Below, piece after piece: positions 40,526 through 62,555 of a DNA stretch of 64,000 nt. Below the pieces are notes generated by a model. That model was not told the origin of the DNA. It searched no databases and saw nothing but the letters and a program-made list of their open reading frames with translations. This DNA is from Candidatus Latescibacterota bacterium. GTDB taxonomy: Bacteria; Latescibacterota; UBA2968; UBA8231. The translations under genes were made by a program, and so were the position numbers. Each line of letters opens with the position of its first letter. The stretch's first letter is position 1. The stretch lies in NCBI GenBank assembly GCA_965206595.1, contig OZ242214.1:3360001-3424000 (forward strand), written 5' to 3'.

Positions 40526-41873
40526 ATGAGCGATAAAGAGACGCAACGCATCCGCGATCCGGTCCATGGTCTTATCGTGTTCGGTGGCGGGAACGACGCA
40601 CACCAGAACGAGACGGACCGAATCGCGTGGCGTCTGCTCAATACCCGGGAATTCCAGAGGCTGCGCCGGATTCGCCAGTTGGGCTTCTCCGACCTGGTAT
40701 ATCCCGGCGCGACACACAGCCGCCTGGCGCACGCCATCGGTGTCTATCACACCGCGCGCCGGCTCATCGAGGTGATTCGCCGACGGCAGGGGAAAACGCA
40801 CGAGGACAAGGAACGGGCGCGAGTCGTACTGTTGGCGACCCTGCTGCACGACATCGGACACGGACCCTTCAGTCACGTCTTCGAGCACGCGCCCTATGCC
40901 GCGAAACGCCATGAAGATTGGGGCGCGGAGATCGTCCAGGGCGAAACCGAGGTCAACCAGGTGTTGCGAGAAGTGGACGAAGTGTTGCCTGAGCACATCG
41001 GCGCGCTGCTGAAAGAGGAAATTCCCAAGGATTTCTACGCTACCGTTGTCTCCAGTCAGTTCGACGCCGACCGGCTCGATTACGTGCAGCGGGATCGCCT
41101 GATGACCGGAGTCGAGTTCGCGCATCTCGATTTTGACTGGCTGCTCGATTGCCTCGAGGTCGGAACGATCACTATCGATCAGGACGAGCCGGTCGAGGTG
41201 CCGTGCCTGTATCTCAATTTCAAGGGAGTGCAGGTGGCGGAGGAGTACCTGCAAGCGCGCTTTCGCCTCTACACAATGGGTCTACATGCACAAGACCACG
41301 CGGGCCGCGGAGAAGATGCTCGACGCTCTGCTGAAGACAGTTACGAAGGATTTGAGAAACTGCGAATTGGCGCGCCGGGATCCGATTTTACGCTACTTTA
41401 CGTCTGAATCGCCGTCGTTGGGTTCGTATCTCGATCTCGACGATGCCGCGGTTTGGGCAACCTTGGCGGCCCTTGCCGAATCACCATCACACCCACTGGC
41501 TTCGGATCTGGCACGCCGTCTGCGAGAGCGCCGTCTTTACAAATGCTTTGATATCGGTATACAGGACAGTTCAGGCGGCAATTTGTACAACCGCTTCAGG
41601 CGCAAATTGCGTGAAAGTCATACTGAGAAGTACAACACCCTTTTATTCGACGACGCGAAGATCGCGCTCTACAAATGGTACGACTTTGCAGATTCCTCGG
41701 TGCTTAATAAGGTTCTGGTAAAAACACGCGCCGAGGATCAAAAACCAAGGGACATTGCAGATGTATCGAGCATCGTCCCTGCGCTTCGAGAAGAGGAGCG
41801 GATTCAGAGGGTTTACGCGCCAGACCAGAACCAGATAGTAGAAGTCAGGCAAATAATGGAGGAGGTCGGATGA
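40526..41873 (+). pseudogene. HD-domain dNTP triphosphohydrolase-like protein (YwfO/SAMHD1-like) with a +1 frameshift at 41278-41280
   Basis: RDPVHG, FQRLRRIRQLG, YPGATHSR..H, LLHDIGHGPFSH and DADRLDY. Removing one G from ATGGG restores the conserved LYTMVYMHKTTR. Confidence 0.85.
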
Positions 41874-42406
41874 AGGCTGAAGACATCGTGGTCAATCTGA
41901 TCATATTGAATGGCGGCGAACTGATCGGCAGGACGCGGCTGCAGAAGGAGGCATATCTTCTGGACCGCTGCGGGGCAAAATTCGGGTTGTCGTTCACTTA
42001 CTACAACTACGGCCCTTACTCCTTCGAGCTGACCGATGGATGGGAGGACGCACGGGCCGAAGGTCGGATTGAGATCGACGAAGAGCCTGGCCGCTACGGT
42101 GTCCCGTATTCGATCTTCAAACTGAAGGAATCCGGCGGCGACCCGGACGACCTGGGTGACATGTCGGCTGCGGCTGCCCGTGCGCGGCTGAGTAAGATGG
42201 CGAGGGTTTCGGACATTGTTCTGGAGCTCGCCGCCACCATCGTCTATCTGAAGAAAGATTACCGCGAGCGGACCATCGAAGAGTTGAAAATTCGCAAACC
42301 TCTCAAGGCGACAGACCCCCTGATCAAAAAAGCCACCGATCTGCTGGACGACCTCGGATTGCCGACTGACGGTACCGAGGATTCTGCAGGACCGCTTACC
42401 CACTGA
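41870..42406 (+). CDS. YwgA-like / Panacea(SocA)-like winged-helix partner protein
   Basis: GRTRLQKEAYLL...F.YYNYGPYS..L and LELAATI; ATGA overlap with the HD gene. Confidence 0.75.
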   Translation: MKAEDIVVNLIILNGGELIGRTRLQKEAYLLDRCGAKFGLSFTYYNYGPYSFELTDGWEDARAEGRIEIDEEPGRYGVPYSIFKLKESGGDPDDLGDMSAAAARARLSKMARVSDIVLELAATIVYLKKDYRERTIEELKIRKPLKATDPLIKKATDLLDDLGLPTDGTEDSAGPLTH

Positions 42407-46172: not shown

Positions 46173-47383
46173 GTGGAGAGGGCGGCAGTCGCGAAGGGCT
46201 TGGTTTTGCGGGGGCTATTGCGGCAATGATTGAGTTCGTCTGAATTGAGGATTGAGGGTAGAAGACTGAATCGTGAGCACAGGACGTGGAAAATACTCGG
46301 CAGCCTCGTCTTCACTGGGCTACTTCTATCAGTGCCGGTACGCGCTGCTTGAGGCGTTGCGTCGTTTGTCCGAGGGCAACCCTATCAGCATCAGCATCGA
46401 GACGCTCGATGATGTCGTGTTCGAGACGGACGATTCTGCCGTCGAGGTTCTCCAGACCAAGCATCACATTAATGCTCATGCCAATCTTACCGACGCATCG
46501 CCTGATTTGTGGAAAACACTACGGATCTGGATAGAGGGACAATCTGACGGGAACATTCCCCAGGACGCCCGGTTCTTCCTCATCACTACGGCGGTGTGCA
46601 ACAACGGCACTGCGGCCGCCTATCTCCGCCCGGGGGTTCGGGACGAGAAGAAAGCGTTGGAACGTCTGGCCGCCGCGGCTTCCACGTCCACCAGTGAAAC
46701 CAATTCCCCGGCCTATCGGGCCTTTCGTTCACTGAAGGCGGAGGACCGCGAACTCCTTGTGACATCCATAACGGTCCTCGACGATTCGCCATCAATCGGC
46801 CAGTTGGACGACCAATTGCAACAGGCTGTGTTCTACGCTGTCGAGCGGCAGTTCCTGAGCTCTTACCTTCAGCGTCTCGAAGGTTGGTGGTTCGGACGAG
46901 TCGTGAAGCATCTCCTAGACGACAACGCACTCCCGATAATCGGTGAGGAACTTGAGGCGGAAGCAAGCCGCATTCGGGAGCAGTTCAAAGAAGACAATCT
47001 TCCCATTGACGACGACATCATGTGGGCGACCGTTGACGCGAGCGGGTATATGGGAAGGACCTTTGTGGAGCAGCTCAATCTGATTGACGTAAATCAAGAC
47101 AGAGTGGTCCACGCTATCAGGAACTACTACCGAGCCTTTGAGCAGCGTTCCCGCTGGGTGCGCGAGGATCTCTTATATGTGGGGGACCTTGAACGCTACG
47201 AGGAGCAGCTAATCGAGGAGTGGGACCTCATATTCCAGCAGATGCGCGACGCGCTTGGCGAGGACGCTGCCGAAGAGGCAAAAATCCGTGCTGCACAGGA
47301 TCTCTATAAGTGGGTGGAGACGGGGGGTACACACCGTGTGATCAAGCCCGCTGTCACGGAGCCTGCCATTGCCCGCGGAACGT

Positions 47384-48237
47384 GAACCTATCTCAAAATA
47401 GGCAAACTTAAACTTGTTTTCGAAATGACAGTGATGTACCATTGGTGTATGGTCAACCTGACCGACATGCAATGGCAACGAATCCGCCATCACTTTCCTG
47501 AAGAACTTCGTCCCAAGAGCCATCCGGGTCGCAAACCGGTTTGCACCCGTGATGTTTTTGAAGCCGTCCTTTGGATTCTAAACACCGGGGCTCAATGGCA
47601 TATGTTGCCGCCGTGCTATCCGAACTACAAAACCGTGCATCGCCGTTTTCAAAACGGGTGTCGTCAAGGGGTGGTACGCGAAGTTCTCATGGACTTGGCC
47701 CAGACACTTCACGAGCAAGGGGGCCTGGACGAATCGGAGGCTTTCATCGACGGCATGTTCTCGGCGGCCAAGGGTGGAGGTGCCGATATCGGCCACACCA
47801 GGCGAGGTAAGGGGGTGCGGGTCATGGGGATCGTGGACGGCAATGGGCCTCCCTTGTCGGTGAGCACGCATGCAGCGAACCATCATGAAGTGACGCTGGT
47901 TCAGTTGACCTTTGACTTTTACCTCATCGAAGACCAACCTGACAACTTGATCGGCGACAAGGCGTACGACAGCGATTCGTTGGATGAAGAGCTTAAGAAA
48001 GACGGGATCGAGATGATCGCCCCGCATCGCCAGAATCGGACCAAGAAAAAGACTCAGGACGGACGGCGATTGCGGCGTTATGTGCGGCGTTGGATGGTTG
48101 AGAGATTCTTTGCTTGGCTTCAATGGCAGCGTCGAGTGATCACTCGCTGGGAATTGTATCCGGAGAATTTTCTTGGCTTCGTCCAACTTGCATCCATTTT
48201 GATTTTGCTTAAACAATTTCAATTTTGAGATAGGTTC
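47384..48237 (+). mobile_element. IS5-family insertion sequence (854 bp)
   Basis: Perfect 16-bp inverted repeats GAACCTATCTCAAAAT/ATTTTGAGATAGGTTC; 2-bp target duplication GT. Confidence 0.93.
47425..48228 (+). CDS. IS5-family transposase
   Basis: LTDMQW, LNTGAQWHMLP, KTVHRRF, FIDG, GDKAYDS and RW.VERFFAW. Confidence 0.92.
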   Translation: MTVMYHWCMVNLTDMQWQRIRHHFPEELRPKSHPGRKPVCTRDVFEAVLWILNTGAQWHMLPPCYPNYKTVHRRFQNGCRQGVVREVLMDLAQTLHEQGGLDESEAFIDGMFSAAKGGGADIGHTRRGKGVRVMGIVDGNGPPLSVSTHAANHHEVTLVQLTFDFYLIEDQPDNLIGDKAYDSDSLDEELKKDGIEMIAPHRQNRTKKKTQDGRRLRRYVRRWMVERFFAWLQWQRRVITRWELYPENFLGFVQLASILILLKQFQF

Positions 48238-48330: not shown

Positions 48331-48837
48331 ATGAAACCGTGGGCAGAACGAACTCGTGAAGAAGCGTACCTGCTGAACCCCGCCTTCTGCTGCGCGACCA
48401 TCACCTCGGCGTGTGCTGGCTACGGTGAATCAAGTGATCAATCGTTGCCGTTCGCTTTGGCTTTTTTGGCTTTCATGGTCCTTCCAATCACTTTGCACAA
48501 ATACACGAGGGGGTCTCTACCCCGCACTATACGCACCTCAATACCCGCCTGGTTGCAGGAGCATCCCGAAGCTAGGCTTGGATTCCATGAACGACTTATG
48601 GCACTACAACCCCACACCCGAGAGTCTATACGCTATGGACTGGCCTTCGACTGGATTGCTATGGGTAACTCAGGGGGCATCCGATGCGTTGCTACGAACG
48701 CGTTAATTAACCGGACGATCCAGTCGCTGGACGGAGATGCCCGAGACTGTGTGTCCCGCGCTCGATTCTTGGGCAGATGGCTCGGCAACACGGCTTCTGC
48801 AGAAACAACTATGGCACTTTGGGGGATTCGCCCTTGA
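48331..48837 (+). CDS. lmuC: Lamassu LmuC / ABC-three-component middle component
   Basis: [17 protein letters not shown] and A.FLGRW...LWGIRP; located between the effector and the SMC-like ATPase. Confidence 0.8.
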
Positions 48838-50810
48838 GCTTTCAGATCAGAGACATAGTCCTCTATGGACACAACGGTGAGATGCGACGACTGGAGTTTG
48901 CTCCCGGCAGGCTCAACATCATCACCGGGGCGTCCAAGACGGGCAAGACGGCGCTAATTGCGATTATCGAATACTGCTTCGGTTCCACCGAGTGCCAAAT
49001 CCCAGATGGCATCATGCGTCGCGCTGTCGCCTGGGCAGGTGTGAGGCTGGCGGTTCCGGAGGGAGATGTCTTTATCGCTAGACGCCTTCCCGCTCCAGGG
49101 CGTAATTCGTCGTTCGAGGTTCACTACACCGTGGGAAGCCAAATCGCTTTGCCGGGCACGGATCAGCTCATGCAGACGACCAACCCGGAAAGTCTCCAAG
49201 GATTGCTTGCAGCCCACGCGGGAATTAGACAGAACCGCCATGACCCCCCTCATGGACAGACACGCCCTCCCTTGCAGGCCGGAATTGCCCATGCGCTGAT
49301 CTACTGCTTCCAGCATCAGACGGAGATTGACAGCAATCGACACCTGTTTCACAGGCAAAGTGAACAATGGCTGCCGCAGGCTATTAAGGACACGATGCCC
49401 TATTTCCTCGGGGCCGTAACTGACGAGTATGTGGCGCGCATGGACGAGCTGCGCCGTCTCCGCCGCGAACTTCAAAGAAGCCGGCGCAAACTGGAAGAAT
49501 ATGAGGCGGTAAGAGGGCAGGGCGTCACCGTGGCACAGGGGCTTCTTGCGGAGGCAACTGACCTCGGTTTGGTCACCGGCCTGTCCTCCCCTGAAACGTG
49601 GGAGGCCTGTCTCGAAGCACTCCGGAGGCTTGCAAATTACGGTGCGAGGTCTATCCTGGAGGAAGAAGAGGTTGCGGCCGAAGGGGATGAGTTCCGTCGG
49701 CTACAGGAGGAACGAGACGAGATCACACACGAGCTTCGCATCGTCCGAGATCAGCTTGACGCTTCAAAAGCACTGACTGCCGACCGCCACGGATTCTCAC
49801 AGGAAGCACAGGCCCAGAGCCTCCGTCTGAAAAGCATTGCGCTGTTTACCTCCCATGACGACCATGAACACAGTAGGACCAGTTGCCCGTTGTGTCAGTC
49901 CTCGCTTCCAAGCAGTGAAGTAACTCCCTCTGTCCAGGAAATCCAAGACTCGCTGGAAAGGCTCGACGACCAGATTCGTCAGGTCGAGGATCGGACTCCG
50001 CAAATGGAGGCAGTCGTGGGTTCGCTTGAAGCCAAGCAGGCCGATATCAAGTCTCGTCTGCGGGACAACCGGGAGAAACTCGAAGCAATCCAACGGGGAA
50101 ACGCCAGGCTGCAGGAGTACAGAGACCGCAACGCCAGAAGGGCCCACATCTCCGGCAGAATCAGCCTGTACCTCGAGAGTGTCCCTCACCTTGATGACGG
50201 CAGTGACTTGCAGCGACAGATTGCCGATCTGCAGGCACAGGTAACCAGACTGGAAGAGGAATTGAGCGACGATGCGGTTCAGGAACGCGTTCAATCGGCG
50301 CTGTCGATCATCTCCCGTAACATGAGCGGTTGGGCTTCGCAACTCGAACTCGAACACGCGGAATTCCCGCTACGCTTGGATCTCCGGCGGCTAACCGTGG
50401 TTGCCGACGGCACCGATGGCCCGATCCCGATGGAGCGCATGGGAAGCGGCGAGAACTGGGTTGGGTATCATCTCATCGCACACTTCGGACTGCACCGCTG
50501 GTTTGTCGAACGGCACCGTCCTGTCCCGGGTTTCATCTTCATTGACCAGCCATCCCAGGTCTACTTCCCGGAAGACGAGGACTGGCAGCGGCAGGGAAAT
50601 GGGACGGTGGAAATAGGCGAGGACAGGGAGAAAGTGAGGCGCATGTACCGATTAGCCCACGATTTTGTGCAGGGCCTCAACGGGCAGTTTCAGGTGATTG
50701 TTACGGACCACGCGAATATCAACGAACCGTGGTTTCAAGACTGTGTGGTTGAGCGCTGGCGAGAAGGAAGGAAATTGATACCACCTGAATGGGACGCTAT
50801 CCCTGAATGA
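48834..50810 (+). CDS. lmuB: Lamassu LmuB SMC/Rad50-like ATPase (DUF3732-type)
   Basis: Walker A GASKTGKT, coiled coils with CPLC zinc hook, GSGENW signature, [10 protein letters not shown] and TDHA. TTG start overlaps the lmuC stop. Confidence 0.88.
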
Positions 50811-50905: not shown

Positions 50906-53900
50906 ATGAATCAGAGCACCTCGGTCTATAATGCATTGCAGAACTTTGCCGCCGCGGTGACAGCCAAAATGACCCAGGTCACCCTTGGCGAGCCCGAGGA
51001 CCAAGTGCGCGGTCCGTTCGAAATCTTCATGGCCGCTACCGCCCGCGCTTTCGGCTGGGAAGTCGTCTGCACCGGTGAAACTTCCCTTCCGGACCGACTC
51101 GGCCGCCCGGATTACGCCGTTCATCGCAACCAGTTGCTCGCCGGATATGTCGAGCTCAAGGCCCCTGGCACCGGGGCGACAGCCACCCGTTTCAGAGGCC
51201 GCAACCGCGATCAGTTCAAGCGCTTCTCTGCTACGCCCAACATCCTCTACACGGATGGCAACGAGTGGGCGCTCTACCGCAACGGCGATCTGATCGACAA
51301 GGTCGTTCGACTGGGAGGCGATGTCGCCGCTGACGGCAGGAAGGCCGCCGCGTTCCAGGACGCCCGGGCCGTCGAGCGTCTCTTGCGCGATTTCCTCTCT
51401 TGGGAACCGATCATTCCCAGGGACCGCAACGGCAAGATCGACCTCAGGGGATTCGCCGCGCTGCTGGCGCCTCTGTGCCGCATGTTGCGCGACGACGTGA
51501 CGGACGCGCTCAAAGACCCGGCGTCTCCGCTCGTGCAGCTTGCGGAAGACTGGCGGCAATTGCTCTTCCCGGATGCCTCGGACGAGCAATTCGCCGACGC
51601 GTACGCCCAGACTGTGACCTTTGCCTTGCTGCTAGGCCGAAGCGAAGGAGCCGATCCGCTTACCCTAGATAGCGCCGAGACGGCCCTCGCCGTCCAGCAC
51701 AACCTGCTGTCGCGGGCACTACAAGTGCTGACGGACCCCGGCGCGCGTGCCGATATCGCCGCTTCCCTCGACCTGCTGCTGCGCGTGATCGATGTCGTGA
51801 CGCCGGCCACGCTCACCGGTCCCGAGGATCCCTGGCTCTATTTCTACGAAGACTTCCTCGCGGTCTACGATCCCAGGCTGCGCAAGGACGCCGGGGCCTA
51901 CTACACCCCGGTCGAGGTCGTCCGCGCCCAGGTGCGCCTGATCGACGATCTGCTCGTCCGCCGTCTCGGCAAACCGCTCGGTTTCGCCGATCCCGGCGTC
52001 GTCACGCTCGATCCCGCCGTGGGAACCGGAACCTATCTGCTCGGCGTCATCGAACACGCCCTCGGCCGCGTCAAAGAAGAGCAAGGCGCCGGAGCGGTCG
52101 CCGGACAAGCCACCGCGCTGGCTCAAAATCTCTACGGTTTCGAGCTACTGGTCGGCCCTTACGCGGTGAGCGAGCTGCGTGTCAGCCGTGCCCTGCGCGA
52201 TGACGGCGCGGCACTGCCCGCCGACGGTACGCACATCTACCTGACCGACACCCTCGAAAGCCCCGACGCGGAACCTCCGCAGATGCCGTTCATTCTGCGG
52301 CCCATCGCCGAGCAACACAGAAAGGCGCTCGCAATCAAGAGCGCGGTCCCGGTCATCGTCTGCCTGGGCAATCCCCCCTACGACCGGCACGATGCGGTGG
52401 ATACGGAAAACGAGGCCAATCTTTCCCAGTATGGCGGATGGGTTCGATTCGGTGACCCTTTGCCTGACAACGTGGTCAAGGATAGAAGGGGCAGAGACAG
52501 GGAGCTCAGGACCGCCGAGGCCAGGCTGGAAAGAAGACAGCAACTCGCTATTCTGAAGGATTTCCTCGACCCTGCCACCGCCGCCGGCCACGGCGTCCAC
52601 GTCAAGAACCTCTACAACCTCTACGTCTATTTCTGGCGCTGGGCGCTGTGGAAGGTCTTCGAGCACGAGACCGCCAGCGGTCCCGGCATCGTCAGCTTCA
52701 TCAGCGCCTCGAGCTACCTCGACGGCGACGCTTTCTCTGGAATGCGCGAACACATACGTCGGCAGTGCGACGAAATCTGGATCCTCGATCTCGGAGGCGA
52801 GGGACGCGGCACGCGCCAGGATGACAATGTCTTTGCGATCCAGACGCCCGTCGCCATTTCCGTGGCTTTCCGTGCGAAGGAGGCGGAAACAGATAAACCC
52901 GCGAAAGTTCACCATGCCCGCATCGAGGGGACGCGCGCTGAGAAACTCGCCGTGCTTGACGCTGTCGAGGGCTTTGCGAATACGAAAGTGAAATGGCAGG
53001 ATTGCCCGGACGCTTGGCAGGCTCCGTTTCGCCCGGCGGGCAAGGGGCATTACTTCGATTGGCCGTTGCTTACTGATCTGATGCCGTGGCAGCATTCGGG
53101 TGTGCAACTCAAACGGACTTGGCCGATTGCACCGGACGCGGAAGTACTGGAGCATCGTTGGCGCAGTCTGCTAAATGCTGAGGATAGATCAAAGGCATTC
53201 CGCGAAACCGGAGACCGTACTGTCGATGGGACGTATCGCGTCGCCCTAACAGAGCGGAGCGACTCGACGCCGATCACCGAACTGCCCGACAGCACCTCCA
53301 TTCCGGAAGTGCAGCAATACGCTTATCGCTCTTTAGACCGCCATTACATCATCGTGGACGGGCGCTTAATGTCCCGTCCGCGCCCCGACCTGTGGCGCGC
53401 CCACGGCGAACGGCAGGTGTATTTGACGAGCCTGCTCAACCATCCGCTCGGTGATGGGCCTGCGGCAACGGCCTGCTCGCACCTTCCCGATCTCCACCAT
53501 TTCCGTGGATCGTACGGGGCAAAAGAGGTCTTCCCCCTCTATCGCACCGCCGACGCTTCGCAGGCGAACATTATCCCTGGCCTGCTCGAAATCCTTGCCA
53601 CAGAATACGAGCGCAACGTCACCCCCGAAGATTTCCTCGGCTACATTTACGGCGTAATAGCCCAACCACCCTTCACAACACGGTTTAAAACCGAACTGGG
53701 AACTCGTGAACTACGCGTACCAATCACAAAGGATGTCGAACTGTTCGAGCAAATCCTTGAGGCGGGTTCACTCCTTCTGTGGCTCCACACCTACGGGGAG
53801 CGTTTCATCCCCACCGGACAGACGCGCGGTCGTGTTCCGCTCGGTGCAGCTAAGTGCGTCAAGGCCGTTCCCGGTGACGCCGACGACTATCCAGAGGCAT

Positions 53901-54298
53901 TCGCTTACAACGACGCGACCCGGACGCTTCGCGTCGGCGAAGGCGAGTTCGCACCCGTCGCACCCGAGGTTTACGAATTCGAGGTCTCCGGCCTCAAGAT
54001 CCTGCAGTCCTGGCTCAAGTACCGCATGAAGAAAGGGGCCGGCAAGAAATCCTCGCCCCTTGACGACATCCGTCCCGAACGCTGGACTAGCCAGTTCACC
54101 ACTGAACTACTGGATTTGCTCCGGGTGCTGGAGGCGACGTTGAAGTGCTACCCCGAACAGTCGCGGCTGCTCAAAGCCGTCGTCGCGAGCGACTGCTTCC
54201 GAGCCGACGAACTACCGCGGGTTCCGGAGGTAATGCGCAAGCCGCCCAAGACACAGACCATCAATAGCGGCTTGTTTGACACGGAGTACGGCCTTTAA
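50906..54298 (+). CDS. Fused restriction-modification enzyme (type IIG / helicase-less type ISP-like; N6-adenine methyltransferase)
   Basis: N-terminal PD..ELK nuclease; YFYEDFL..YD...GAYYTP; motif I DPAVGTG; motif IV GNPPY; C-terminal ISP-type specificity region. Confidence 0.88.
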   Translation: MNQSTSVYNALQNFAAAVTAKMTQVTLGEPEDQVRGPFEIFMAATARAFGWEVVCTGETSLPDRLGRPDYAVHRNQLLAGYVELKAPGTGATATRFRGRNRDQFKRFSATPNILYTDGNEWALYRNGDLIDKVVRLGGDVAADGRKAAAFQDARAVERLLRDFLSWEPIIPRDRNGKIDLRGFAALLAPLCRMLRDDVTDALKDPASPLVQLAEDWRQLLFPDASDEQFADAYAQTVTFALLLGRSEGADPLTLDSAETALAVQHNLLSRALQVLTDPGARADIAASLDLLLRVIDVVTPATLTGPEDPWLYFYEDFLAVYDPRLRKDAGAYYTPVEVVRAQVRLIDDLLVRRLGKPLGFADPGVVTLDPAVGTGTYLLGVIEHALGRVKEEQGAGAVAGQATALAQNLYGFELLVGPYAVSELRVSRALRDDGAALPADGTHIYLTDTLESPDAEPPQMPFILRPIAEQHRKALAIKSAVPVIVCLGNPPYDRHDAVDTENEANLSQYGGWVRFGDPLPDNVVKDRRGRDRELRTAEARLERRQQLAILKDFLDPATAAGHGVHVKNLYNLYVYFWRWALWKVFEHETASGPGIVSFISASSYLDGDAFSGMREHIRRQCDEIWILDLGGEGRGTRQDDNVFAIQTPVAISVAFRAKEAETDKPAKVHHARIEGTRAEKLAVLDAVEGFANTKVKWQDCPDAWQAPFRPAGKGHYFDWPLLTDLMPWQHSGVQLKRTWPIAPDAEVLEHRWRSLLNAEDRSKAFRETGDRTVDGTYRVALTERSDSTPITELPDSTSIPEVQQYAYRSLDRHYIIVDGRLMSRPRPDLWRAHGERQVYLTSLLNHPLGDGPAATACSHLPDLHHFRGSYGAKEVFPLYRTADASQANIIPGLLEILATEYERNVTPEDFLGYIYGVIAQPPFTTRFKTELGTRELRVPITKDVELFEQILEAGSLLLWLHTYGERFIPTGQTRGRVPLGAAKCVKAVPGDADDYPEAFAYNDATRTLRVGEGEFAPVAPEVYEFEVSGLKILQSWLKYRMKKGAGKKSSPLDDIRPERWTSQFTTELLDLLRVLEATLKCYPEQSRLLKAVVASDCFRADELPRVPEVMRKPPKTQTINSGLFDTEYGL

Positions 54299-54844: not shown

Positions 54845-56704
54845 CCTTTGTTATTCATTCAACCCGCGCATAAGCGGACATAGGCGCTTCCGAGACCCCT
54901 TTGCTTAGCCTCAGAGGCTTGCGTCCCTTCTATAGTCGGCTTTTTGGGTAGAGCCGTCTCCTTATCTCTACCGACCTTGTTGAAATTGTACGCGCCTTCT
55001 CGAAGACGCTTGCCTTTGCGAGCCCATCATCCCGACCGACCCGGCCTGCGCTTACGCCATCGCCGCGTCCACCGGTTTGAGCGTGGCCAGAAATCTCCAC
55101 AGACGATCCCAGGCAGCCGCCGTCCCTTGGGTCAGGATGACGCCCACCCTGCGCCCATGCAAGGTGACGCGGGACGGCAGGCGCAGGTAGCGCCGTCGAA
55201 AACTGTCCAGGCTCAGGGCCGTCGTCGAGCGTCCGTATGTGCGGGGCCGCCCGCGTCGGGCCTCGGCGCGTTCGGCGGCCTGGCGGCCCAGGTGAAGCAG
55301 GTTGTAGGCCAGCAGGTTCAAGGTCAGAAGCGCCTGGTTGGCAGCGAAGGCATCCCGGGACGGGGTGCGCTGACGCGGCTCTCGACCCCGGTAGTGTTGC
55401 TTGCGACGGGTGGTAGAGGAGAGCTGAGGCTGGAGGGTGGAGCTCAACTCGCCGAGCATGCGCTCGAAAAGGCCGCGCTGACGATAAAAGGCGACCAGGT
55501 CGCGGCCGCTCATCGTCTGGGGACTCTGGTCGGTGATCAGGAAGAAGTGGCGGGCGATGGGCAGCTCTTCCGTCTCGGAAGGGACCAGGACCAACACCAC
55601 CCGCCGGGGCTGCGCCCAGGACCTGGCTTGATAGCGCAGCTCGCGACAGCGAAAACCCTCTTCCCGCAGCTCTTCCGGGTGCTGCGCCAGCTCCTGCTGA
55701 TAGCCTTCCACCCAGGCACGAGCCAGCTCCTCCAGGCGCGCATTCTTCTTGATGCGCGCCACGTACGAGGTGTCGGCCCGCGCTTCCAGCTCACTCAGGA
55801 AAGACCCGCTCACCGAGGCCGCGTCGAAGCGCAGGATGAGGCGCCGGGCCAGATGCGACTGAATCCAGTCCAAGCGCTTGCCGAGAGCCTCTGAGGCGCC
55901 CTCATGGGCGTGCACGTTGCCCGGCCGCAGCACGGCACCGAAGAAATCGCCCGTCTGCGCCGAGCCGAGGAGCAGGGGATGGTACCCCGAGGCGTGGAAG
56001 TAGCCGTTGTATTCGACCCCCGCCTGGTGCCCGTGCGCCGGCATCGGCAGGGCATCCATGTCGACGGCCAACTCCTCGTATTTCATCCGTCCTTCCAGCA
56101 GCCGGCAACGAGACCGGGCGCTGCGCAGGACGGCTTCCTCCAACACCTCGCGGTTATAGGCAGTCGAGGCTTGCTCGAGCAGGCGCGACAGCGTCGGCTG
56201 ACTGGCCAGTCCCTGCGGCCGGTCTTCGTCGCCGCTGCGCAACGGCGCCTGCCCTTTGCGATCGCTGACCGCCAGACGCAGGATCGGATCTTGGCGCAAC
56301 GCGTCGGCGTCGGCGGCGTGGGTCCAGCCCTGTGCCAGCAGCACGATCTGTGTGCGCAGCAGCTCCGGCAGCGGGTGCGTGATCTGGTCTTGGGTACGGA
56401 GATCCTCGAAGTGGGCGTCGACCCAATCCAGAACCCGGCTGTGTTCGAGCAGTTGACGCAACATCAGCGCACCGGTGTCGCTGCCAAGGTGGGTGGGGCG
56501 GGCTTCGATGTGGATGGAGCGGTTGAAAGACGGCTGAATCGGCCCGGCTTGCTCGGACTCGGTGTGTGACGGTAATTCACCCATTGGGTGTCCTACTGTG
56601 TGATGGGTTCAAAGGGCGATACTGCCTTGTGTTTCCCTCTGAAATCTAAGCATGGGAGGCACCCAGTACAGCCCTCTCCACTAAAATTCCATGAATAACA
56701 AGGG
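54845..56704 (-). mobile_element. IS1380-family insertion sequence, copy 2 (inverted relative to copy 1)
   Basis: Same inverted repeats, length and six-frame translations as 1649-3508. Flanks TTGAG/CTGAG form a near-perfect 5-bp target duplication. Confidence 0.93.
55052..56584 (-). CDS. IS1380-family DDE transposase
   Basis: Protein identical to 1769-3301. Confidence 0.92.
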   Translation of the reverse strand: MGELPSHTESEQAGPIQPSFNRSIHIEARPTHLGSDTGALMLRQLLEHSRVLDWVDAHFEDLRTQDQITHPLPELLRTQIVLLAQGWTHAADADALRQDPILRLAVSDRKGQAPLRSGDEDRPQGLASQPTLSRLLEQASTAYNREVLEEAVLRSARSRCRLLEGRMKYEELAVDMDALPMPAHGHQAGVEYNGYFHASGYHPLLLGSAQTGDFFGAVLRPGNVHAHEGASEALGKRLDWIQSHLARRLILRFDAASVSGSFLSELEARADTSYVARIKKNARLEELARAWVEGYQQELAQHPEELREEGFRCRELRYQARSWAQPRRVVLVLVPSETEELPIARHFFLITDQSPQTMSGRDLVAFYRQRGLFERMLGELSSTLQPQLSSTTRRKQHYRGREPRQRTPSRDAFAANQALLTLNLLAYNLLHLGRQAAERAEARRGRPRTYGRSTTALSLDSFRRRYLRLPSRVTLHGRRVGVILTQGTAAAWDRLWRFLATLKPVDAAMA

Positions 56705-57182
56705 CTGAGTATACCTCCGAGTTGGAACAAGTGAGGGCTGTCCAGAAACAATTCGAAGATGAGGCCGAAATCTGTGCCGAAAGTGGGGCCTATCATGCGG
56801 CAACCGTAATGATTGGCTCCGCCATTGAGTCCGCCTTTCTGTTCACCTGCTTGAAACACCGAGACGAAGCTTTGAACGCACGGGACTGCTTACCAAAACG
56901 CAAACGACCGAGAAGTGAAGATCCGAAAAGTTGGGGGTTTTCGGATTTCGTGCTAGTGGTAGACAAGGCGGGATGGTTATCAGACTTTCATTTCGAGGAC
57001 GGAACTCTGATCACTCGCGGGTTAGGGGACATGGCACGCAACCTGCGGAACTTGGTGCATCCTTCCCGACACCTAACCAAACAGAACCTCGATATAGCGC
57101 TTATGTATGGTAACGCACGAGCCGCCTACATTCTGCTCAAGCAGCGTTTGCCGGGACACTCTACGGAAGACGAGTAGTCTTC

Positions 57183-58445
57183 TTATTTTTTTGCCGCTCT
57201 ATTCCCGATAATTTTCCGCTTCGAGGCGGCCTTCTTTTTCTTCGGCGTCGCTTTCCTGGAGGCCGCTTTCTTTCCGGCGGCTTTTTTCGACGCAGCCTTC
57301 GTTACAGCGACCTTTCTCTTCAACGCCGCTTTCTTTACGGACGCTTTCTTCTTCGACGTCGTTTTCTTTGCAGCGACCTTCTTCTTTAGTGCTGCTTTCT
57401 TTCCGGCGGTTTTCTTCTTCAATGGGGCCTTCTTCAATGCCGCTTTTTTCCCGACAGTCTTCTTCTTCGACGCCGGCTTCTTTATGGAGGCCTTCCTCTT
57501 CAATGGGGCCTTCGTCAGCGCGGCTTTCTTTTTCGACCCCGCTTTCTTTCCGGCAACCTTCTTCTTCGCTGCGGCTTTCTTTCCAGCGGCTTTCTTCTTC
57601 AATACCGCCTTTTTCCCGGCCACCTTCTTTTTTGACGCCGTTTTCTTCCCGCCTGCCTTTTTCTTCGATGCCTTTCTTCCCGCAGCCTTCCTCTTCTCCA
57701 CCTCTTCTGCTGCCGGGGCGGGGTCTTCCGCGGCGGTGTCGATATCGATCCCGAAGACCGACGACAGATCGTCCGAGGCCAGCACCCGGCCCCTGGGCGC
57801 GCCAGCCCCGGGCTGCTGCTGGACTGCGGCTTCCACCATCTCCAAGGGATCGACCCCTCTCAGGGTGAACAGCTTCTCGGGCTCGTGATCGAGGCGCGCG
57901 CCGACCCCGTAGAGGGCGGCCGCCACGTGCTTGCACATCACTGCCCAGTCCGGGCAGGAGCAGCTCAGGGCAATCTCCCCGGGCGACGGGAACAGCCCCT
58001 CTCCCGGGCGGGTAACGACCTCCATCACCCCCTTGGAGAGGGAGCCGCGCAACAGCTCCACCAGGGAGTCGATCTCCCCCGCGCTGCGCCCCTTCACCTC
58101 GGTCCATCGCCCCTGGGGCAGAGGCTGGATCCGGATGTCGACGCGGTACAGATCCGTGCCCATGACGAGCGCCTGCACGCGCCCGGTTTCGACGCTCAGG
58201 TGGATGACGGACCCGTTGCGCACGTATGTGCGGCCGCGGGGCAGGCGATTGGCGAAATCGCTGTACGCCTCGAGGTTGTCGCACCACGCCTGGCCCCAGA
58301 AGGTGGCGGCGATCCTGCGCCCCTCGATCTCCACCGGCTCGACCTCCTGTCCGACCTTCATGACCGCGGCGATCGTCTTCGCAGTCTTGCGGCGGCGCTT
58401 GGCCACCGGCACGTGGGGCCGCCATCCATGGCGGTACCTGCTCAT
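57183..58445 (-). CDS. SWIM zinc-finger protein with a ~170-aa histone H1-like Lys/Ala-rich tail
   Basis: FWGQAWCDNLE, NRLPRGRTY.RNG.V, GLFP, CSCPDWAVMCKH (CxCx(n)CxH), followed by KKAAGKKAAAKKK-type repeats. Confidence 0.88.
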   Translation of the reverse strand: MSRYRHGWRPHVPVAKRRRKTAKTIAAVMKVGQEVEPVEIEGRRIAATFWGQAWCDNLEAYSDFANRLPRGRTYVRNGSVIHLSVETGRVQALVMGTDLYRVDIRIQPLPQGRWTEVKGRSAGEIDSLVELLRGSLSKGVMEVVTRPGEGLFPSPGEIALSCSCPDWAVMCKHVAAALYGVGARLDHEPEKLFTLRGVDPLEMVEAAVQQQPGAGAPRGRVLASDDLSSVFGIDIDTAAEDPAPAAEEVEKRKAAGRKASKKKAGGKKTASKKKVAGKKAVLKKKAAGKKAAAKKKVAGKKAGSKKKAALTKAPLKRKASIKKPASKKKTVGKKAALKKAPLKKKTAGKKAALKKKVAAKKTTSKKKASVKKAALKRKVAVTKAASKKAAGKKAASRKATPKKKKAASKRKIIGNRAAKK

Positions 58446-58706
58446 CGATTCCTCCTCCAGGTTTCAGTCTTCACGGCACGCCCCGGCGTTTTCCGGAACG
58501 TGCAAGCGGGGTCCGCCCTTCGCAGCCGCGGAAATCCCCGTTACAGCGGATTACCCGCACCGGTCCGCCAGCGGCCTCCTTCGCAGGGAGGATCCCCCCC
58601 CCTGTCCACGGCGGGGCCCTTGCCCCACTGCTTCACGGCAGATGCGAAAACCCACACGAGCTGCGGTGCACCCGGTAAGCCGCTGCACGCCGTCCCTGCT
58701 GCAGGC

Positions 58707-61448
58707 TCACGAGCCCGTTCCCTGCGCGGCGCTGTCGAGGTCGAGCGACACCATCGCGAGCAGCTCCTCGTCGCTCATCTCGGTCAGGGAGGACTCCGCT
58801 CCCTGCGACAGGATCTCGTCGGAGAGCCCCTGCTTGGCGGCGATCAGCTGGTCGATGCGCTCCTCCACCGTGCCGCGGCAGACGAACTTGTGGACGAGGA
58901 CGTTCTTCTTCTGGCCGATGCGGAAGGCACGGTCGGTGGCCTGGTTCTCCACGGCCGGGTTCCACCAGCGGTCGAAGTGGATGACGTGCGAGGCGGCGGT
59001 GAGATTGAGCCCGGTGCCGCCGGCCTTGAGCGAAAGCACCATGAACGGCACCCGGTCGTCCTCCTGGAAGCTCTTGACCAGCTGCTGGCGCCTGCGCACC
59101 GGGGTGCCGCCGTGCAGCACCAGGCCGTCCCGCCCGAAGACCTCGGCGAGGAAGCCGGCAAGCGGCGCCGTCATCTCGCGGAACTGGGTGAACACCAGCA
59201 GCTTGTCCTGGCGCGCCGCGATCGATTCGCACAGCTCCTCGAGGCGTTCGAACTTGCCGCTGCCGTCCGGCTCGAAGCTGCCGTCGCCGAGCCAGTGGGA
59301 CGGGTGGTTGCAGATCTGCTTGAAGCGTATCAGGAAGGCGAGGACCATGCCGCGGCGTTCGATGCCGTCCAGCACCTCGATCGCTTCCTCCATCTCGTCG
59401 ACCGCCTGCTGGTAGAGGGCGGCCTGTTGCCGGCTTAAAAGGCACCAGGCGTTGACCTCGGTCTTGTCGGGGAGGTCGGCGATGACGCTCCTGTCGGTCT
59501 TGAGCCGGCGCAGGATGTAGGGCCGCATGAGCTTTCGCAGCGGCGCGTACCCCCCACCCTGGCCCGAAGCCATCGACTTGCACAGCCGCCCGAACGCCTT
59601 CGCCGAGCCGAGGAGCCCGGGATTGAGGAAATCGAAGATCGACCACAGGTCGCCGAGCCGGTTCTCGACCGGGGTCCCGGTCAGGGCCAGTCGCCACCTG
59701 GAGGGCAGGGCCTTGACCGCCCGGGTCTGCTGGGCGGCCGGGTTCTTGATGGCCTGGGCCTCGTCCAGCACCACTGTGCGCCACGGATGCCTCTTCATCC
59801 AGTCCAACCGCAGGACGGTGCCGTAGGTGGATATCACCGCGTCGTGCGCCGCCACCTTGCGGCGCGAGAGCTTCTTCAGCTCCGCCGAGGGGAGGTGCGA
59901 CGGATGGGCGACCAGCACCTTCAGAAAGGGGGCGAAACGTTCGATCTCCTGGCGCCAGTTGTCGATGAGCGAAGCCGGGACCACCAGCAGGTCGGTCCCC
60001 TTGTCTCCCTGTTTCCGGCCGAGGGAGAGCACCGCCAGCACCTGAATGGTCTTGCCCAGGCCCATGTCGTCGGCCAGGCAGCCTCCGAGCTCCAGTCCGC
60101 GCAGGGTCCACAGCCACTGCACCCCAAGCTTCTGATAGGGACGCAGTTCGGCCTTCAAACCGGCCCCCGCGTCGATCTCGGCCCGCAGGCTCGAGGCGCG
60201 CAGGGCCTCGAGCTTTCCCGTGAGCCACTTGCCGGCGACGACCTGAGACCATTCCGGCAGCTCGCCACCCTCCCCGTCATCGTGGCCATCGAGCGTTACG
60301 CCGGCCAGCATGCGCATCGCCTCGCCGAAGCCGACGCCTTCGGCGCGGGCCTCGGTTTGCACCTCCCGCCACTGCGCGAGCACGGCCTCGAGCTTCTCCC
60401 GGTCCACCTCGACCCACTTCCCCCTGATCAGCGCCAGACCCTCGGTGGAGGCCAGCAGGGCCTCTATCTCCTTCCGCGACAGGTTCTCGCCGTCGAGGCT
60501 CAGGGCGACGTCGAAGTCGAGCAGTCCCTCCATGCCGAGCACCGAGGGCGGCTTGCCGCCCACGGTCACCGAGACCTTGGGGCGGGGCCGGCTGGCGGCG
60601 CTCCACCAGTCCGGGGTGCGCACGACGAGCCCGGCCTGCTCGTAGAGGGCCGTCTCGGTCAGGAAGCGGTGCGCCTGCGCCGAGGTCCAGGGCAGGGGGT
60701 GGTAGACATCGCCGGAGTCGACGAGGTCGCGGAGGAAGTCGCTCTCCTGCGCGGCGCGGGACAGGGGGGCGAGCAGGGCGAGCAGCTTCTGCCGGTTCCT
60801 CTCCCCGGCGTACTCCTCGAGGGCGCGTCCCAGCGGCAGGTGCGAGGGCGCCGCCCGCCGGGAGACCTTGTGGACGTAGGTGGCGATGAAGGCGAAGGGG
60901 TACTCCGGATCGCGCCTGTTCTCGGCCAGGTGCAGGCAGACCCTGCCGACGACGTTCCAGACCGGACTCTGCGCCTTCAGGTAGCCCTGGACGCCCCCCT
61001 TGGACTTCGCCGCAAGGACTGCCAGGGCCTTCCCGGTGTCGGACCAAACCGCGCCCAGCAGCGCGGGCGTGATCAGCTCGGCGCCCGGCATCGGAGGGGC
61101 CGCCTGGACGCAGGCGGCGATCTCTTCGGGATCCGGGTCGGGAACGACCAGGGAATCGGGGTCGGACGGGTCGAGCACACCGCACACCCGGGCAACGAAG
61201 GAGCGGCCGAAGTCGCGCCAGTACGCCAGCGAAGGGTGGAGATCGGCGCCGGGCGCGCCAGCGCCCAGATGGAGCACCCCGTGCCCGCGCCCGGACTCGA
61301 ACGCATTGAGGATGCGCCGAGCATCCGCCGGCGCCATACGCGGGCCCTCCTCCGGGGCAGCGGGCCTCACGTCGATGCGCCCGCCGGGGGTCAACCCGCA
61401 GACGAGGGTGTGCGGCGCACCGGGGACGGCATCGGAGGTACGGGGCAT
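58707..61448 (-). CDS. SNF2-family (SWI2/SNF2) ATPase
   Basis: LRPYQ, LADDMGLGKT, DEAQ, TGTPVEN, LRRLK, SGK, GGTGLNLT, WWNPAVENQATDRAFRIGQ. Confidence 0.93.
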   Translation of the reverse strand: MPRTSDAVPGAPHTLVCGLTPGGRIDVRPAAPEEGPRMAPADARRILNAFESGRGHGVLHLGAGAPGADLHPSLAYWRDFGRSFVARVCGVLDPSDPDSLVVPDPDPEEIAACVQAAPPMPGAELITPALLGAVWSDTGKALAVLAAKSKGGVQGYLKAQSPVWNVVGRVCLHLAENRRDPEYPFAFIATYVHKVSRRAAPSHLPLGRALEEYAGERNRQKLLALLAPLSRAAQESDFLRDLVDSGDVYHPLPWTSAQAHRFLTETALYEQAGLVVRTPDWWSAASRPRPKVSVTVGGKPPSVLGMEGLLDFDVALSLDGENLSRKEIEALLASTEGLALIRGKWVEVDREKLEAVLAQWREVQTEARAEGVGFGEAMRMLAGVTLDGHDDGEGGELPEWSQVVAGKWLTGKLEALRASSLRAEIDAGAGLKAELRPYQKLGVQWLWTLRGLELGGCLADDMGLGKTIQVLAVLSLGRKQGDKGTDLLVVPASLIDNWRQEIERFAPFLKVLVAHPSHLPSAELKKLSRRKVAAHDAVISTYGTVLRLDWMKRHPWRTVVLDEAQAIKNPAAQQTRAVKALPSRWRLALTGTPVENRLGDLWSIFDFLNPGLLGSAKAFGRLCKSMASGQGGGYAPLRKLMRPYILRRLKTDRSVIADLPDKTEVNAWCLLSRQQAALYQQAVDEMEEAIEVLDGIERRGMVLAFLIRFKQICNHPSHWLGDGSFEPDGSGKFERLEELCESIAARQDKLLVFTQFREMTAPLAGFLAEVFGRDGLVLHGGTPVRRRQQLVKSFQEDDRVPFMVLSLKAGGTGLNLTAASHVIHFDRWWNPAVENQATDRAFRIGQKKNVLVHKFVCRGTVEERIDQLIAAKQGLSDEILSQGAESSLTEMSDEELLAMVSLDLDSAAQGTGS

Positions 61449-61819
61449 CGGGGGTTATCTCGAGGCAGGGAGGGTGAAATGGGGGGCAGGGGGGAAGATG
61501 ACCGATCCTGCGGTTCCCGCAAGCAGGAAGGGGGAACAGGGGTGGGCGTCAGGTCGGAAGGGAACCAGGGGCCGTGCGCGGCTCTGACGAGGAAACGCTG
61601 GCTGGACCGACTCGCCGGCGCTGGCCTTGTTGCGGTGACCGGGTGATGTTGTCGCCCTTTTCTGGAGGGCGAGGGCTGCCGCTATGCAGCCGCACCATCC
61701 GGCTCTAGCGGCTGATGACGGATGGCTTTGGTTTGCCGACCTCTTGTCCTCGTTTTCTTAAGCGCGGCTTTAAATTTGCCAGGGTATTCTTCCCGCCGGA
61801 TCCACAGAATCGGTCGCCA

Positions 61820-61910
61820 ATGCCTTGGGGCCGACAACCCGCGGTCGCCTTGATCAGGCCGCGTCAGGTTGGCGAGACCGCACTCGCTTACGAGATCGCG
61901 GGGCGGGCGG
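61820..61910 (+). pseudogene. Relic N-terminus of an AAA+ (DUF4143-type) ATPase
   Basis: RQPAVALIRPRQVGETALAYEIA resembles a decayed 'PAVALLGPRQVGKTTLA' Walker A region. Confidence 0.45.
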
Positions 61911-61955
61911 TTGGTCACCGGAGTCGATATCGGTCTTGTCGCCGGAAAGCGGATA

Positions 61956-62555
61956 GTGAGCCTCGACAAAACGCCGCCCAACAGCCTCGACGACGTGCGC
62001 TCCGCCCTCGGCAGCCGGCGCCTGAAAACCGTGCCGGGCTGCCGTGCCGCGGTGGCCGTCGTCTGCTGCGAGCAGGCCGGCTCGCTGCATCTGCTGTTCA
62101 TCAAAAGAGCGCAGAGAGCGGGAGATCCCTGGTCCGGGCACCTCGCCTTTCCCGGAGGCCGCCTCGATGCCGGCGACCCGGGGCCCCGGGCGGCTGCCGA
62201 ACGGGAGACGCGGGAGGAGGTCGGCCTCGACCTCGGCCCGGAGGAGTACCTCGGGCGCCTCGACGATCTCGCCACGGTGACCACCTCGATGCGGGTCGCC
62301 GCCTTCGTGTACGCAATCGCCGGACCGCGGCCGCTGCGGACCGGCGACGAGGTGGAGGAGGCGTTCTGGTATCCGTTCGCGGAACTGCTCGACCCGGAGC
62401 GGCAGGGGCTGCGGGAGTTCGAGCACCGCGGCGAGCGGGATTCCTGGCCGAGCATCGACCTGCGGCGCCCGGGCAGTCCCTATCTCTGGGGGGTGACCTA
62501 CCGTTTCGTCGCCCATCTGGCGGAGCTGCTCGGGCGCACTCTGCCCGGGGCTTAG
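61956..62555 (+). CDS. Nudix hydrolase (CoA pyrophosphatase-like)
   Basis: AAVAV, IKRA...DPWSGHLAFPGG, AAERETREEVGL and LWGVT. GTG start is inferred. Confidence 0.87.
   Translation: MSLDKTPPNSLDDVRSALGSRRLKTVPGCRAAVAVVCCEQAGSLHLLFIKRAQRAGDPWSGHLAFPGGRLDAGDPGPRAAAERETREEVGLDLGPEEYLGRLDDLATVTTSMRVAAFVYAIAGPRPLRTGDEVEEAFWYPFAELLDPERQGLREFEHRGERDSWPSIDLRRPGSPYLWGVTYRFVAHLAELLGRTLPGA

Follow-up and report, generated by a model that had tools for sequence, protein, structure and literature searches.

The 64,000-nucleotide stretch of the Candidatus Latescibacterota genome considered here (the window) carries on its minus strand a gene for an SNF2-family ATPase and, downstream of it, a gene for a SWIM zinc-finger protein with a strongly basic C-terminal tail. 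The SNF2 gene (58707-61448) was delimited from its open reading frame, translation and Pfam matches and encodes P0002, an SsoRad54-type protein of 913 residues. Its conserved N-terminal domain (residues 1-247; 60708-61448) is followed by a DUF3670 domain (PF12419, residues 248-380; 60309-60707), recognised by Pfam with an expect value (E) of 9.9e-33 and returned at the same bases by a genome search, and by an ATPase core (58914-60137) composed of SNF2-rel (residues 438-717, E 1.6e-61) and Helicase_C (residues 732-845, E 3.4e-20). The SWIM gene (57183-58445), delimited by the same means, encodes the 420-residue protein P0001. Its core (residues 1-235; 57741-58445) was defined by AlphaFold2, structural matching and HMMER and contains the zinc-finger motif found by Pfam (residues 160-179; 57909-57968); an acidic linker (residues 236-250; 57696-57740), evident from composition, leads to a Lys/Ala-rich disordered tail (residues 251-420; 57186-57695), recognised by composition, repeats and low model confidence. 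A sequence-only reading of this DNA had described the two genes, the acidic linker and the repeat tail, and all were found where it placed them. It had also described the SWIM gene as following SNF2; the two are indeed neighbours on the same strand, but do not abut and are separated by a spacer of 261 bp (58446-58706, minus strand).

The SWIM domain of P0001 was recognised by Pfam (PF04434) at 21.2 bits, above the gathering threshold of 19.6, and its zinc ligands C162, C164, C171 and H173 were invariant in alignments of 150 and of 120 homologs. With a 120-row alignment, AlphaFold2 folded residues ~11-210 at a predicted local distance difference test score (pLDDT) above 90. The top structural match to this core was the SWIM region of ZSWIM8 (9rwz_M; Z 7.8, root mean square deviation 2.9 over 92 residues), with the next match well below it (Z 4.4). 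No sequence of a solved structure matched the core at E ≤ 1, a Foldseek search of the PDB with the SWIM model gave no match at E ≤ 1e-3, and no PADLOC model matched the SWIM protein.

The linker that follows the core (DTAAEDPAPAAEEVE) holds six Asp or Glu and no Lys or Arg in 15 residues. The tail, by composition, contains 69 Lys, 7 Arg and 42 Ala and not a single acidic residue in 170, giving a net charge of +76 and a pI of 12. It can be divided into ~15 imperfect units of 11 residues, encoded by an imperfect 33-nt tandem repeat with higher orders of 66 and 99 nt, and its pLDDT was below 50. The guanine-cytosine (GC) content of its coding DNA is 51.6%, versus 68.9% for the SWIM core. In being Lys/Ala-rich, acid-free, disordered and built of repeats, the tail has a histone H1-like composition. 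The NCBIfam model hist_H1_lk_Burk (NF038053) matched P0001 at 25.5 bits (E 1.4e-5), under its cut-off of 80; P0001 had no Pfam HC2 match at E ≤ 0.01, and PF07382 is precomputed on several of its relatives. An Rfam search of 56400-62000 placed a sub-threshold ssnA match inside the tail repeats (20.5 versus 37.3 bits), which was rejected as chance.

A six-frame scan of the 7.05-Mb genome (GC 63.7%) found 50-residue Lys/Ala-rich windows in only four open frames, that of P0001 (~186 residues) being by far the longest, and in this genome the tail can therefore hardly be ascribed to chance. The other three frames lie outside the window, at G000:C1:5750569-5751006 (+), 5250729-5251493 (-) and 3091340-3091933 (-). 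The first begins with a Lys/Ala N-terminus of ~80 residues, and the sequence after it may resemble a SWIB/MDM2 domain. Twelve of the 13 close relatives of P0001 (75-99% full-length identity) keep a long tail; the tails of the 13 vary by insertions or deletions of ~6, 11-12 and 23-24 residues, and one protein ends at 294 residues through an apparent frameshift.

The sequence-only reading had proposed a survey of the tail across SWIM homologs and had named a strain-specific expansion as the outcome that would count against it. Three sets were surveyed: the 150 best SWIM representatives, the 119 top hits of a word index and 77 species loci. At least 50 residues extended beyond the core in 149 of the 150 representatives (median ~126), and a basic window of at least 40 residues was present in 111 of them, in 105 of the 119 word-index hits and in 61 of the 77 species loci. 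In 83 of the 150 representatives the last 60 residues were hydrophobic and folded-looking; 53 had both features and 9 had neither. All 77 species loci encoded net-positive tails, 76 of them at +9 or above, and across these loci neither the charge (rho -0.14, p 0.21) nor the length of the tail correlated with locus GC. The window's +76 exceeds the maximum of +72 among the representatives, the +75 of a further locus (L020) and the +73 of the congener (L008), and its tail is the extreme of a continuum of basic tails. The tail is thus not a strain-specific expansion, tails being family-wide as well as kept in the close relatives described above.

In other members of the family the position of the tail is occupied by folded DNA-binding domains. 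Pfam was run on P0001 together with the first 119 of the 150 representatives, 120 members in all, and found (counts overlap) SWIM in 74 and, in the tail slot, HTH_3 in 19, HTH_31 in 11, AbiEi_4 in 6, an Xre-like helix-turn-helix (HTH) in 5, MarR_2 in 4 and MerR in 2, with ROS/MucR, the H-NS C-terminal domain, an AT-hook and SAP once each and several other HTH types. Inspection of C-termini showed recurrent Xre-type, excisionase/AbiEi-like and winged-helix modules, each after a basic linker, as well as purely polycationic tails. The presence of positive tails throughout the family, and of folded DNA-binding domains at the same position, indicates that the tail is a trait of the whole family, selected for its positive charge, and that its slot is a DNA-binding slot. 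With recognised DNA-binding domains at this position and every species tail net positive, the window's tail is plausibly a DNA-binding arm. The arrangement of a conserved SWIM core, then a linker, then an apparently interchangeable DNA-binding device, of one kind or another in almost every member, is a useful addition to what is known of the family. A C-terminal 'RW' motif that had been guessed was dropped, as it occurred in 1 of the 150 representatives only.

A naturally tail-less class was considered and not accepted. There were 3718 homologs of 230 residues or fewer; among the best 120 of these, 13 lay on contigs of at least 10 kb, and 12 of the 13 break off within the conserved core in aberrant sequence, as frameshifted genes would; the remaining one has a basic tail of 22 residues. 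At one locus (L063, a Candidatus Baltobacteraceae metagenome-assembled genome) an AbiEii toxin-like gene (2048-3112, plus strand; PADLOC E 1.5e-111) lies just upstream of SNF2, and there the SWIM tail is basic and repeat-bearing rather than an AbiEi module.

The best solved-structure match to P0002 was the SNF2/Rad54 core of Sulfolobus solfataricus (1z63; residues 430-903, E 4.7e-125, 421.6 bits), followed by 8qy7 (257.4 bits), which Foldseek names Zorya ZorD; the cores of ISWI, INO80 and CSB were also sequence relatives in this search. Residues of the ATPase motifs, among them GLGKT (463-467), DEAQ (562-565) and the QATDRAFRIGQ block, were invariant in 54 aligned homologs. The top named NCBIfam model was the SCO1167/SCO6262 family helicase (NF058637; residues 213-902), whose score of 563.5 bits is under the curated cut-off of 1200, so that P0002 is not an equivalog; a 'pilus expression-regulating Snf2 family helicase' model scored 335.8 bits against a cut-off of 1100 and contributes a name only. 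P0002 has no close paralog in its own genome, the next best protein being 31% identical. SsoRad54 is described as an ATPase that depends on double-strand DNA, alters the topology of the duplex, binds RadA and stimulates strand exchange (PMC2677860). By analogy P0002 would be a double-strand-DNA translocase of this type, an activity known for SsoRad54 only.

Upstream of the ATPase core, conservation of the SNF2 N-terminal region began near residue 14 across 53 full-length partners, and AlphaFold2 modelled residues 1-420 with a pLDDT of 87.9 and a predicted template modelling score of 0.80. Residues 1-247 had no Pfam match, and Foldseek found no match to the 1-420 model in the PDB at E ≤ 1e-3. 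VIA-align returned homeodomains at a top Z of 4.9 over a discontinuous range, a likeness put down to a helical arrangement shared by many proteins rather than to relationship. The 430-residue N-terminal region, which includes DUF3670, appears to contain a novel-looking domain without a clear structural relative. Pfam, PADLOC and structure searches revealed neither a nuclease nor any other effector domain in the SNF2-SWIM pair.

The sequence-only reading had proposed that the two genes form a functional pair, and this was borne out by three kinds of evidence. Conservation of gene order was assessed in the best 80 of at least 596 confirmed loci, taken from one genome per species. In 76 of the 80 the SNF2 gene lay directly upstream of the SWIM gene on the same strand; two of the four misses were at contig ends (L066, L079) and two were true misses (L014, L056). 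The gap between the genes was mostly 5-90 bp, with 1724 bp in L047 and 622 bp in L065. Clustering of the 673 predicted genes of these loci revealed no third conserved gene, the largest other cluster being found at 3 loci. Gene fusion gave the same indication: among 79 long homologs, defined as SWIM-core matches of more than 735 residues, the SWIM core was N-terminal to DUF3670-SNF2 in 66, C-terminal in 6 and without SNF2 in 7; for three of the fused proteins Pfam bore out the architecture. In the fused proteins the helicase reaches the last residues and there is no C-terminal tail. The protein P0274 (875 residues, on one 3.9-kb contig) joins a SWIM core (8-244) to a PLD-like domain (PF13091, E 5.9e-14); this may be an uncommon fusion to an effector, or else the product of adjacent genes read through as one.

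The third line was modelling of the pair, also proposed in the sequence-only reading. The complex of SNF2 residues 1-725 and SWIM residues 1-240 scored an ipSAE of 0.49 (runs 0.47-0.51), whereas the best of three controls scored 0.00; at least 79% of contacts agreed among runs and the pLDDT of the partners was at least 74. This result was classed as 'weak support'. Of 157 solved complexes, 116 reach the mark applied, as do 2 of 215 mismatched pairs; with an ipSAE of 0.60 or below, only 18 of the solved complexes reach it, and so do both of the mismatched pairs that passed. These counts apply only roughly to a prediction made, as here, from our own alignments. Linkage and fusion provide a strong prior, and physical binding of the SNF2 and SWIM proteins is likely. 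Together, synteny, N-terminal fusion and the predicted complex indicate that the two genes are a functional pair, a self-contained two-gene cassette.

The spacer between the genes of the window departs somewhat from the family pattern, being 261 bp long here and 263 bp in the congener compared with 5-90 bp in most relatives. It contains a terminator-like hairpin after SNF2 (58657-58674; consensus scan only) and a strong ribosome-binding site (GGAGGAGG) before the SWIM ATG, is unique in the genome and has no Rfam match; a promoter scan found no sigma-70-like sites. The longer spacer and the hairpin suggest that the SWIM gene may be transcribed separately from SNF2 in this lineage.

These findings are best accommodated by an 'anchor and pump' model, to which we assign a probability of roughly 60%, in which the SWIM protein is an adaptor that anchors an SsoRad54-type translocase to DNA. 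The folded SWIM core would dock on the SNF2 motor, and the SWIM C-terminus would serve as an interchangeable DNA anchor on a flexible linker; in the window this anchor would be the 170-residue H1-like polycationic tail, acting independently of sequence. A motor held on the same DNA as it pumps would be unable merely to slide, and close to its anchor it would therefore introduce torsion or loops, or displace bound proteins. Candidate purposes are genome maintenance, gene regulation and control of foreign DNA. Chromatin remodelling, with DNA compaction or phase separation by the tail, as envisaged in the sequence-only reading, would be candidate activities only. The model starts from what was observed, namely the gene linkage, the fusion forms, the fold of the core, a tail that is disordered and charged, and DNA-binding domains in its place in relatives; from these we infer that the two proteins bind each other, that the tail binds DNA and what anchoring would entail.

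Several points weigh against this model. The repeat tail gains and loses units among near-identical strains and is cut short in one variant, which argues that its exact length is not tightly constrained. The fused SWIM-SNF2 motors have no C-terminal tail, and the anchor is thus not obligatory for every such motor. The complex prediction stayed at 'weak support' and returned no interface, and the SWIM core itself might bind DNA rather than the motor. Finally, the literature searched, with most subscription journals outside it, contained no experiment on any split SNF2-SWIM member.

The family is large and widely spread. When a library of 1.84 billion proteins, clustered at 50% identity, was searched by HMMER with SWIM core residues 1-250, representatives of 6028 clusters matched at E ≤ 1e-3, and 1078 of them still did so at E ≤ 1e-30. 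The loci listed from the scan of one genome per species fall in Acidobacteriota, Planctomycetota, Verrucomicrobiota, Myxococcota, Desulfobacterota and other phyla, with Alpha-, Beta- and Gammaproteobacteria also among them. Among the relatives of the window's genome the distribution is patchy. The pair was found in 7 of 41 relatives, the genome itself included, with 5 of the 24 that share its family and 1 of the 2 further species in its genus carrying it. Across the phylum it occurs in 15 of 151 genomes (5 of the 52 of high quality) and in 10 of 46 genera. Copies from the same phylum but another genus were 33-58% identical (43-58% within the family), whereas, among the matches listed, loci in Acidobacteriota and Desulfobacterota were 63-68% and metagenome proteins 70-76% identical. 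The occurrence of nearer relatives in other phyla than in the window's own family indicates that the pair has moved horizontally. The SWIM core was also detected on 125 of 72,556 plasmids (38 from Bradyrhizobium, 27 from Streptomyces; 56 conjugative) and in 1 of 50,697 phage records, a fused SNF2 of Wolbachia phage WO with 29% identity.

The pair borders a lower-GC island (54-60%, versus ~69% for the pair) downstream of the SWIM gene. Convergent with that gene is a low-GC open reading frame of 151 residues (56722-57177, plus strand), ~96% identical at the DNA level in the congener; a terminator-like hairpin lies between the two (57165-57183, plus strand; consensus scan only). This frame had no Pfam, PADLOC or NCBIfam match and did not recur beside the pair in other species among the 80 loci. 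Beyond it are an IS4-like element (54845-56705) with its transposase on the minus strand (DDE_Tnp_1_4, 55052-56584), a type IIG restriction-modification fusion gene of 1130 residues (50906-54298; PADLOC REase_MTase_IIG, 1161.5 bits; Pfam Type_ISP_C and N6_Mtase), and the Lamassu genes LmuB (48777-50810; PADLOC E 5.2e-144, DUF3732) and LmuA (46273-47385; PADLOC E 3.9e-65, with Pfam matches to CTD7 and, weakly, to the Cap4 nuclease). Between LmuA and LmuB lie an IS5-like DDE transposase (47425-48228) and a 97-residue open reading frame (48413-48706), and the Lamassu pair may be disrupted or merely interrupted. A NUDIX protein and insertion sequence elements are also among the neighbours. The congener locus is collinear with the window from 61576 to 56706 at 96% and continues into the same type IIG gene without the IS4-like element, which therefore looks like a recent insertion; upstream of SNF2 the two loci differ. 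Another low-GC stretch encodes an HD-domain protein (40526-41407) with a weak dGTPase-like PADLOC match (E 1.4e-7) and a 178-residue protein (41870-42406) with weak DarG-like matches (PADLOC E 1.1e-6, NCBIfam E 9.3e-5).

The sequence-only reading had placed the pair at the edge of a defence island, and this is real in the window and its congener. It did not extend to the family. PADLOC at E ≤ 1e-15 matched 11 of 150 nearest-neighbour proteins, at 10 of 38 loci, a count made without a background control from which no conclusion on enrichment is drawn. The matches were the type IIG restriction-modification gene of the congener, IetA, AbiEii, SoFic, NERD+UvrD and two RecD-like proteins, together with generic ones to a kinase (two matches), a subtilase and a hydrolase. 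With so few matches, several of them generic, the defence-island position is local to the window and congener and not a family trait.

One rival to the anchor and pump model is anti-phage or anti-plasmid defence, with the SWIM protein sensing or marking invading DNA on which the SNF2 motor then acts. The Lamassu and type IIG neighbours of the window and congener, the patchy spread within the phylum and genus, the closer kinship to copies in other phyla, the carriage on plasmids, many of them conjugative, the resemblance of the SNF2 core to the ZorD and DpdE models and the frequency of Xre- and AbiEi-type HTHs in the tail slot would all fit such a role. However, the SWIM protein matched no PADLOC model, neither protein contains a visible nuclease or other effector domain, the scores against ZorD, DrmD and DpdE are far under their cut-offs with the partner genes of those systems not adjacent, and the neighbourhood counts just given are low and partly generic. 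We consider defence unlikely as the function of the pair. A role as an accessory of recombination, repair or transcription, either as a Rad54-like helper of RecA or as a promoter-recruited motor with SWIM as its targeting subunit, would draw on other parts of the evidence: the nearest solved relative is the RadA-binding SsoRad54, sequence-specific HTH, MarR and MerR modules fill the tail slot of many relatives, and a related NCBIfam clade bears the pilus expression-regulating name, at the low score noted. Against it, core repair genes do not show such a patchy and horizontally moving spread, the conserved neighbours at the 80 loci include neither recA nor any repair gene, and the window's tail lacks sequence specificity for promoter targeting. 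This role appears distinctly improbable.

A different objection concerns the tail alone, which might be a neutral low-complexity expansion produced by replication slippage, with the SWIM core working by itself. Its 33-nt tandem repeat, the unit-sized length changes and the 294-residue variant among close relatives, and the fused family without such a tail would fit this reading. Yet basic tails of unrelated sequence recur across phyla and are net positive at every species locus, the window's tail contains no acidic residue and is held at a GC content well below that of its core, folded DNA-binding domains fill the slot in other members, and 12 of the 13 short homologs on longer contigs end within the core as frameshifts do. 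A neutral tail is accordingly very hard to sustain. At the other end, the anchor and pump model could be extended to the family as a mobile 'anchored translocase', a prokaryotic counterpart of chromatin remodellers in which swappable anchors couple recognition like that of xenogeneic silencers to ATP-driven remodelling or eviction of foreign DNA. The H1-like polycation, the H-NS C-terminal domain, MucR/Ros and the AT-hook belong to kinds known to favour AT-rich or minor-groove DNA. The SWIM adaptor with its swappable anchor would decide where the SsoRad54-type motor works, and AT-preferring anchors in a 64%-GC host would bias it towards horizontally acquired DNA. This extension is speculative, and we hold it to be improbable as it stands.

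Under the anchor and pump model, an annotation of 'SNF2 plus zinc finger' becomes a concrete proposal of an anchor and a motor, for a very large, multi-phylum and plasmid-borne family whose split pair has no functional paper that was found. The window's copy, whose tail is the most highly charged of those compared, would be a good extreme case for biochemistry, and Bacillus subtilis, Corynebacterium glutamicum and Synechococcus elongatus, where DUF3670 genes were also found, would offer tractable hosts.

The SWIM domain and SWIM-associated SNF2 proteins were reportedly first described by Makarova, Aravind and Koonin in 2002. A SWIM-associated clade of SsoRad54-type SNF2 proteins is named in Iyer et al. 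2017 (PMC5512222), and the window pair belongs with it, having an ATPase core closest to 1z63 and an adjacent SWIM protein, as other members have an adjacent or fused one. The paper on the SWIM protein PG1037 of Porphyromonas deals with another architecture (PMC3747172). The literature searched contained no paper with 'DUF3670' or 'PF12419' and none combining SWIM, SNF2 and anti-phage, and mentioned ywqA, helZ, Rv2101 and SCO1167 in gene lists only. The locus is therefore a further member of a known but uncharacterised SWIM-SNF2 family, and the pattern of swappable DNA anchors may already be in print. Unlike the solved archaeal fragment, which is the ATPase core only, the window motor adds the 430-residue N-terminal region, with its novel-looking domain and DUF3670, and has a separate SWIM adaptor with a polycationic tail.

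The defence systems that use SNF2 proteins resemble the pair in the motor alone. The SNF2 core aligns with Zorya ZorD (PADLOC E 1.1e-121), Dpd DpdE (E 6.1e-109) and DISARM DrmD, but NCBIfam scores are far under the cut-offs (ZorD 308.1 versus 1500 bits, DrmD 61.7-84.9 versus 610-950, DpdE 42.2 versus 500), no Zor, Dpd or Drm partner genes adjoin the pair, and there is no nuclease domain. The pair does not belong to Zorya, DISARM or Dpd.

On the side of the tail, the Burkholderia H1-like proteins are likewise Lys/Ala-rich, acid-free, disordered repeat polycations, with a profile similarity that is weak and below cut-off; the histone H1 C-terminal domain, chlamydial Hc1 and Hc2 and Pseudomonas AlgP are further polycations of this kind. 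Unlike them, the window's tail is an appendage of the zinc-finger adaptor of a motor and not a free nucleoid protein. Among eukaryotic remodellers, ISWI, Mot1 and Rad54 have DNA- or substrate-anchoring modules, and the likeness would lie in an Snf2 motor held by a separate anchoring module, although the window pair has no nucleosome substrate. Lysine repeats on actinobacterial topoisomerase I (Streptomyces TopA) are described as stabilising the enzyme-DNA complex and raising processivity (PMC5714199). There, too, a lysine-repeat tail serves a DNA enzyme, as the window's tail is proposed to do; the catalytic activities differ, and the topoisomerase carries its tail on the enzyme itself, whereas in the SNF2-SWIM pair the tail is borne by a separate partner subunit.

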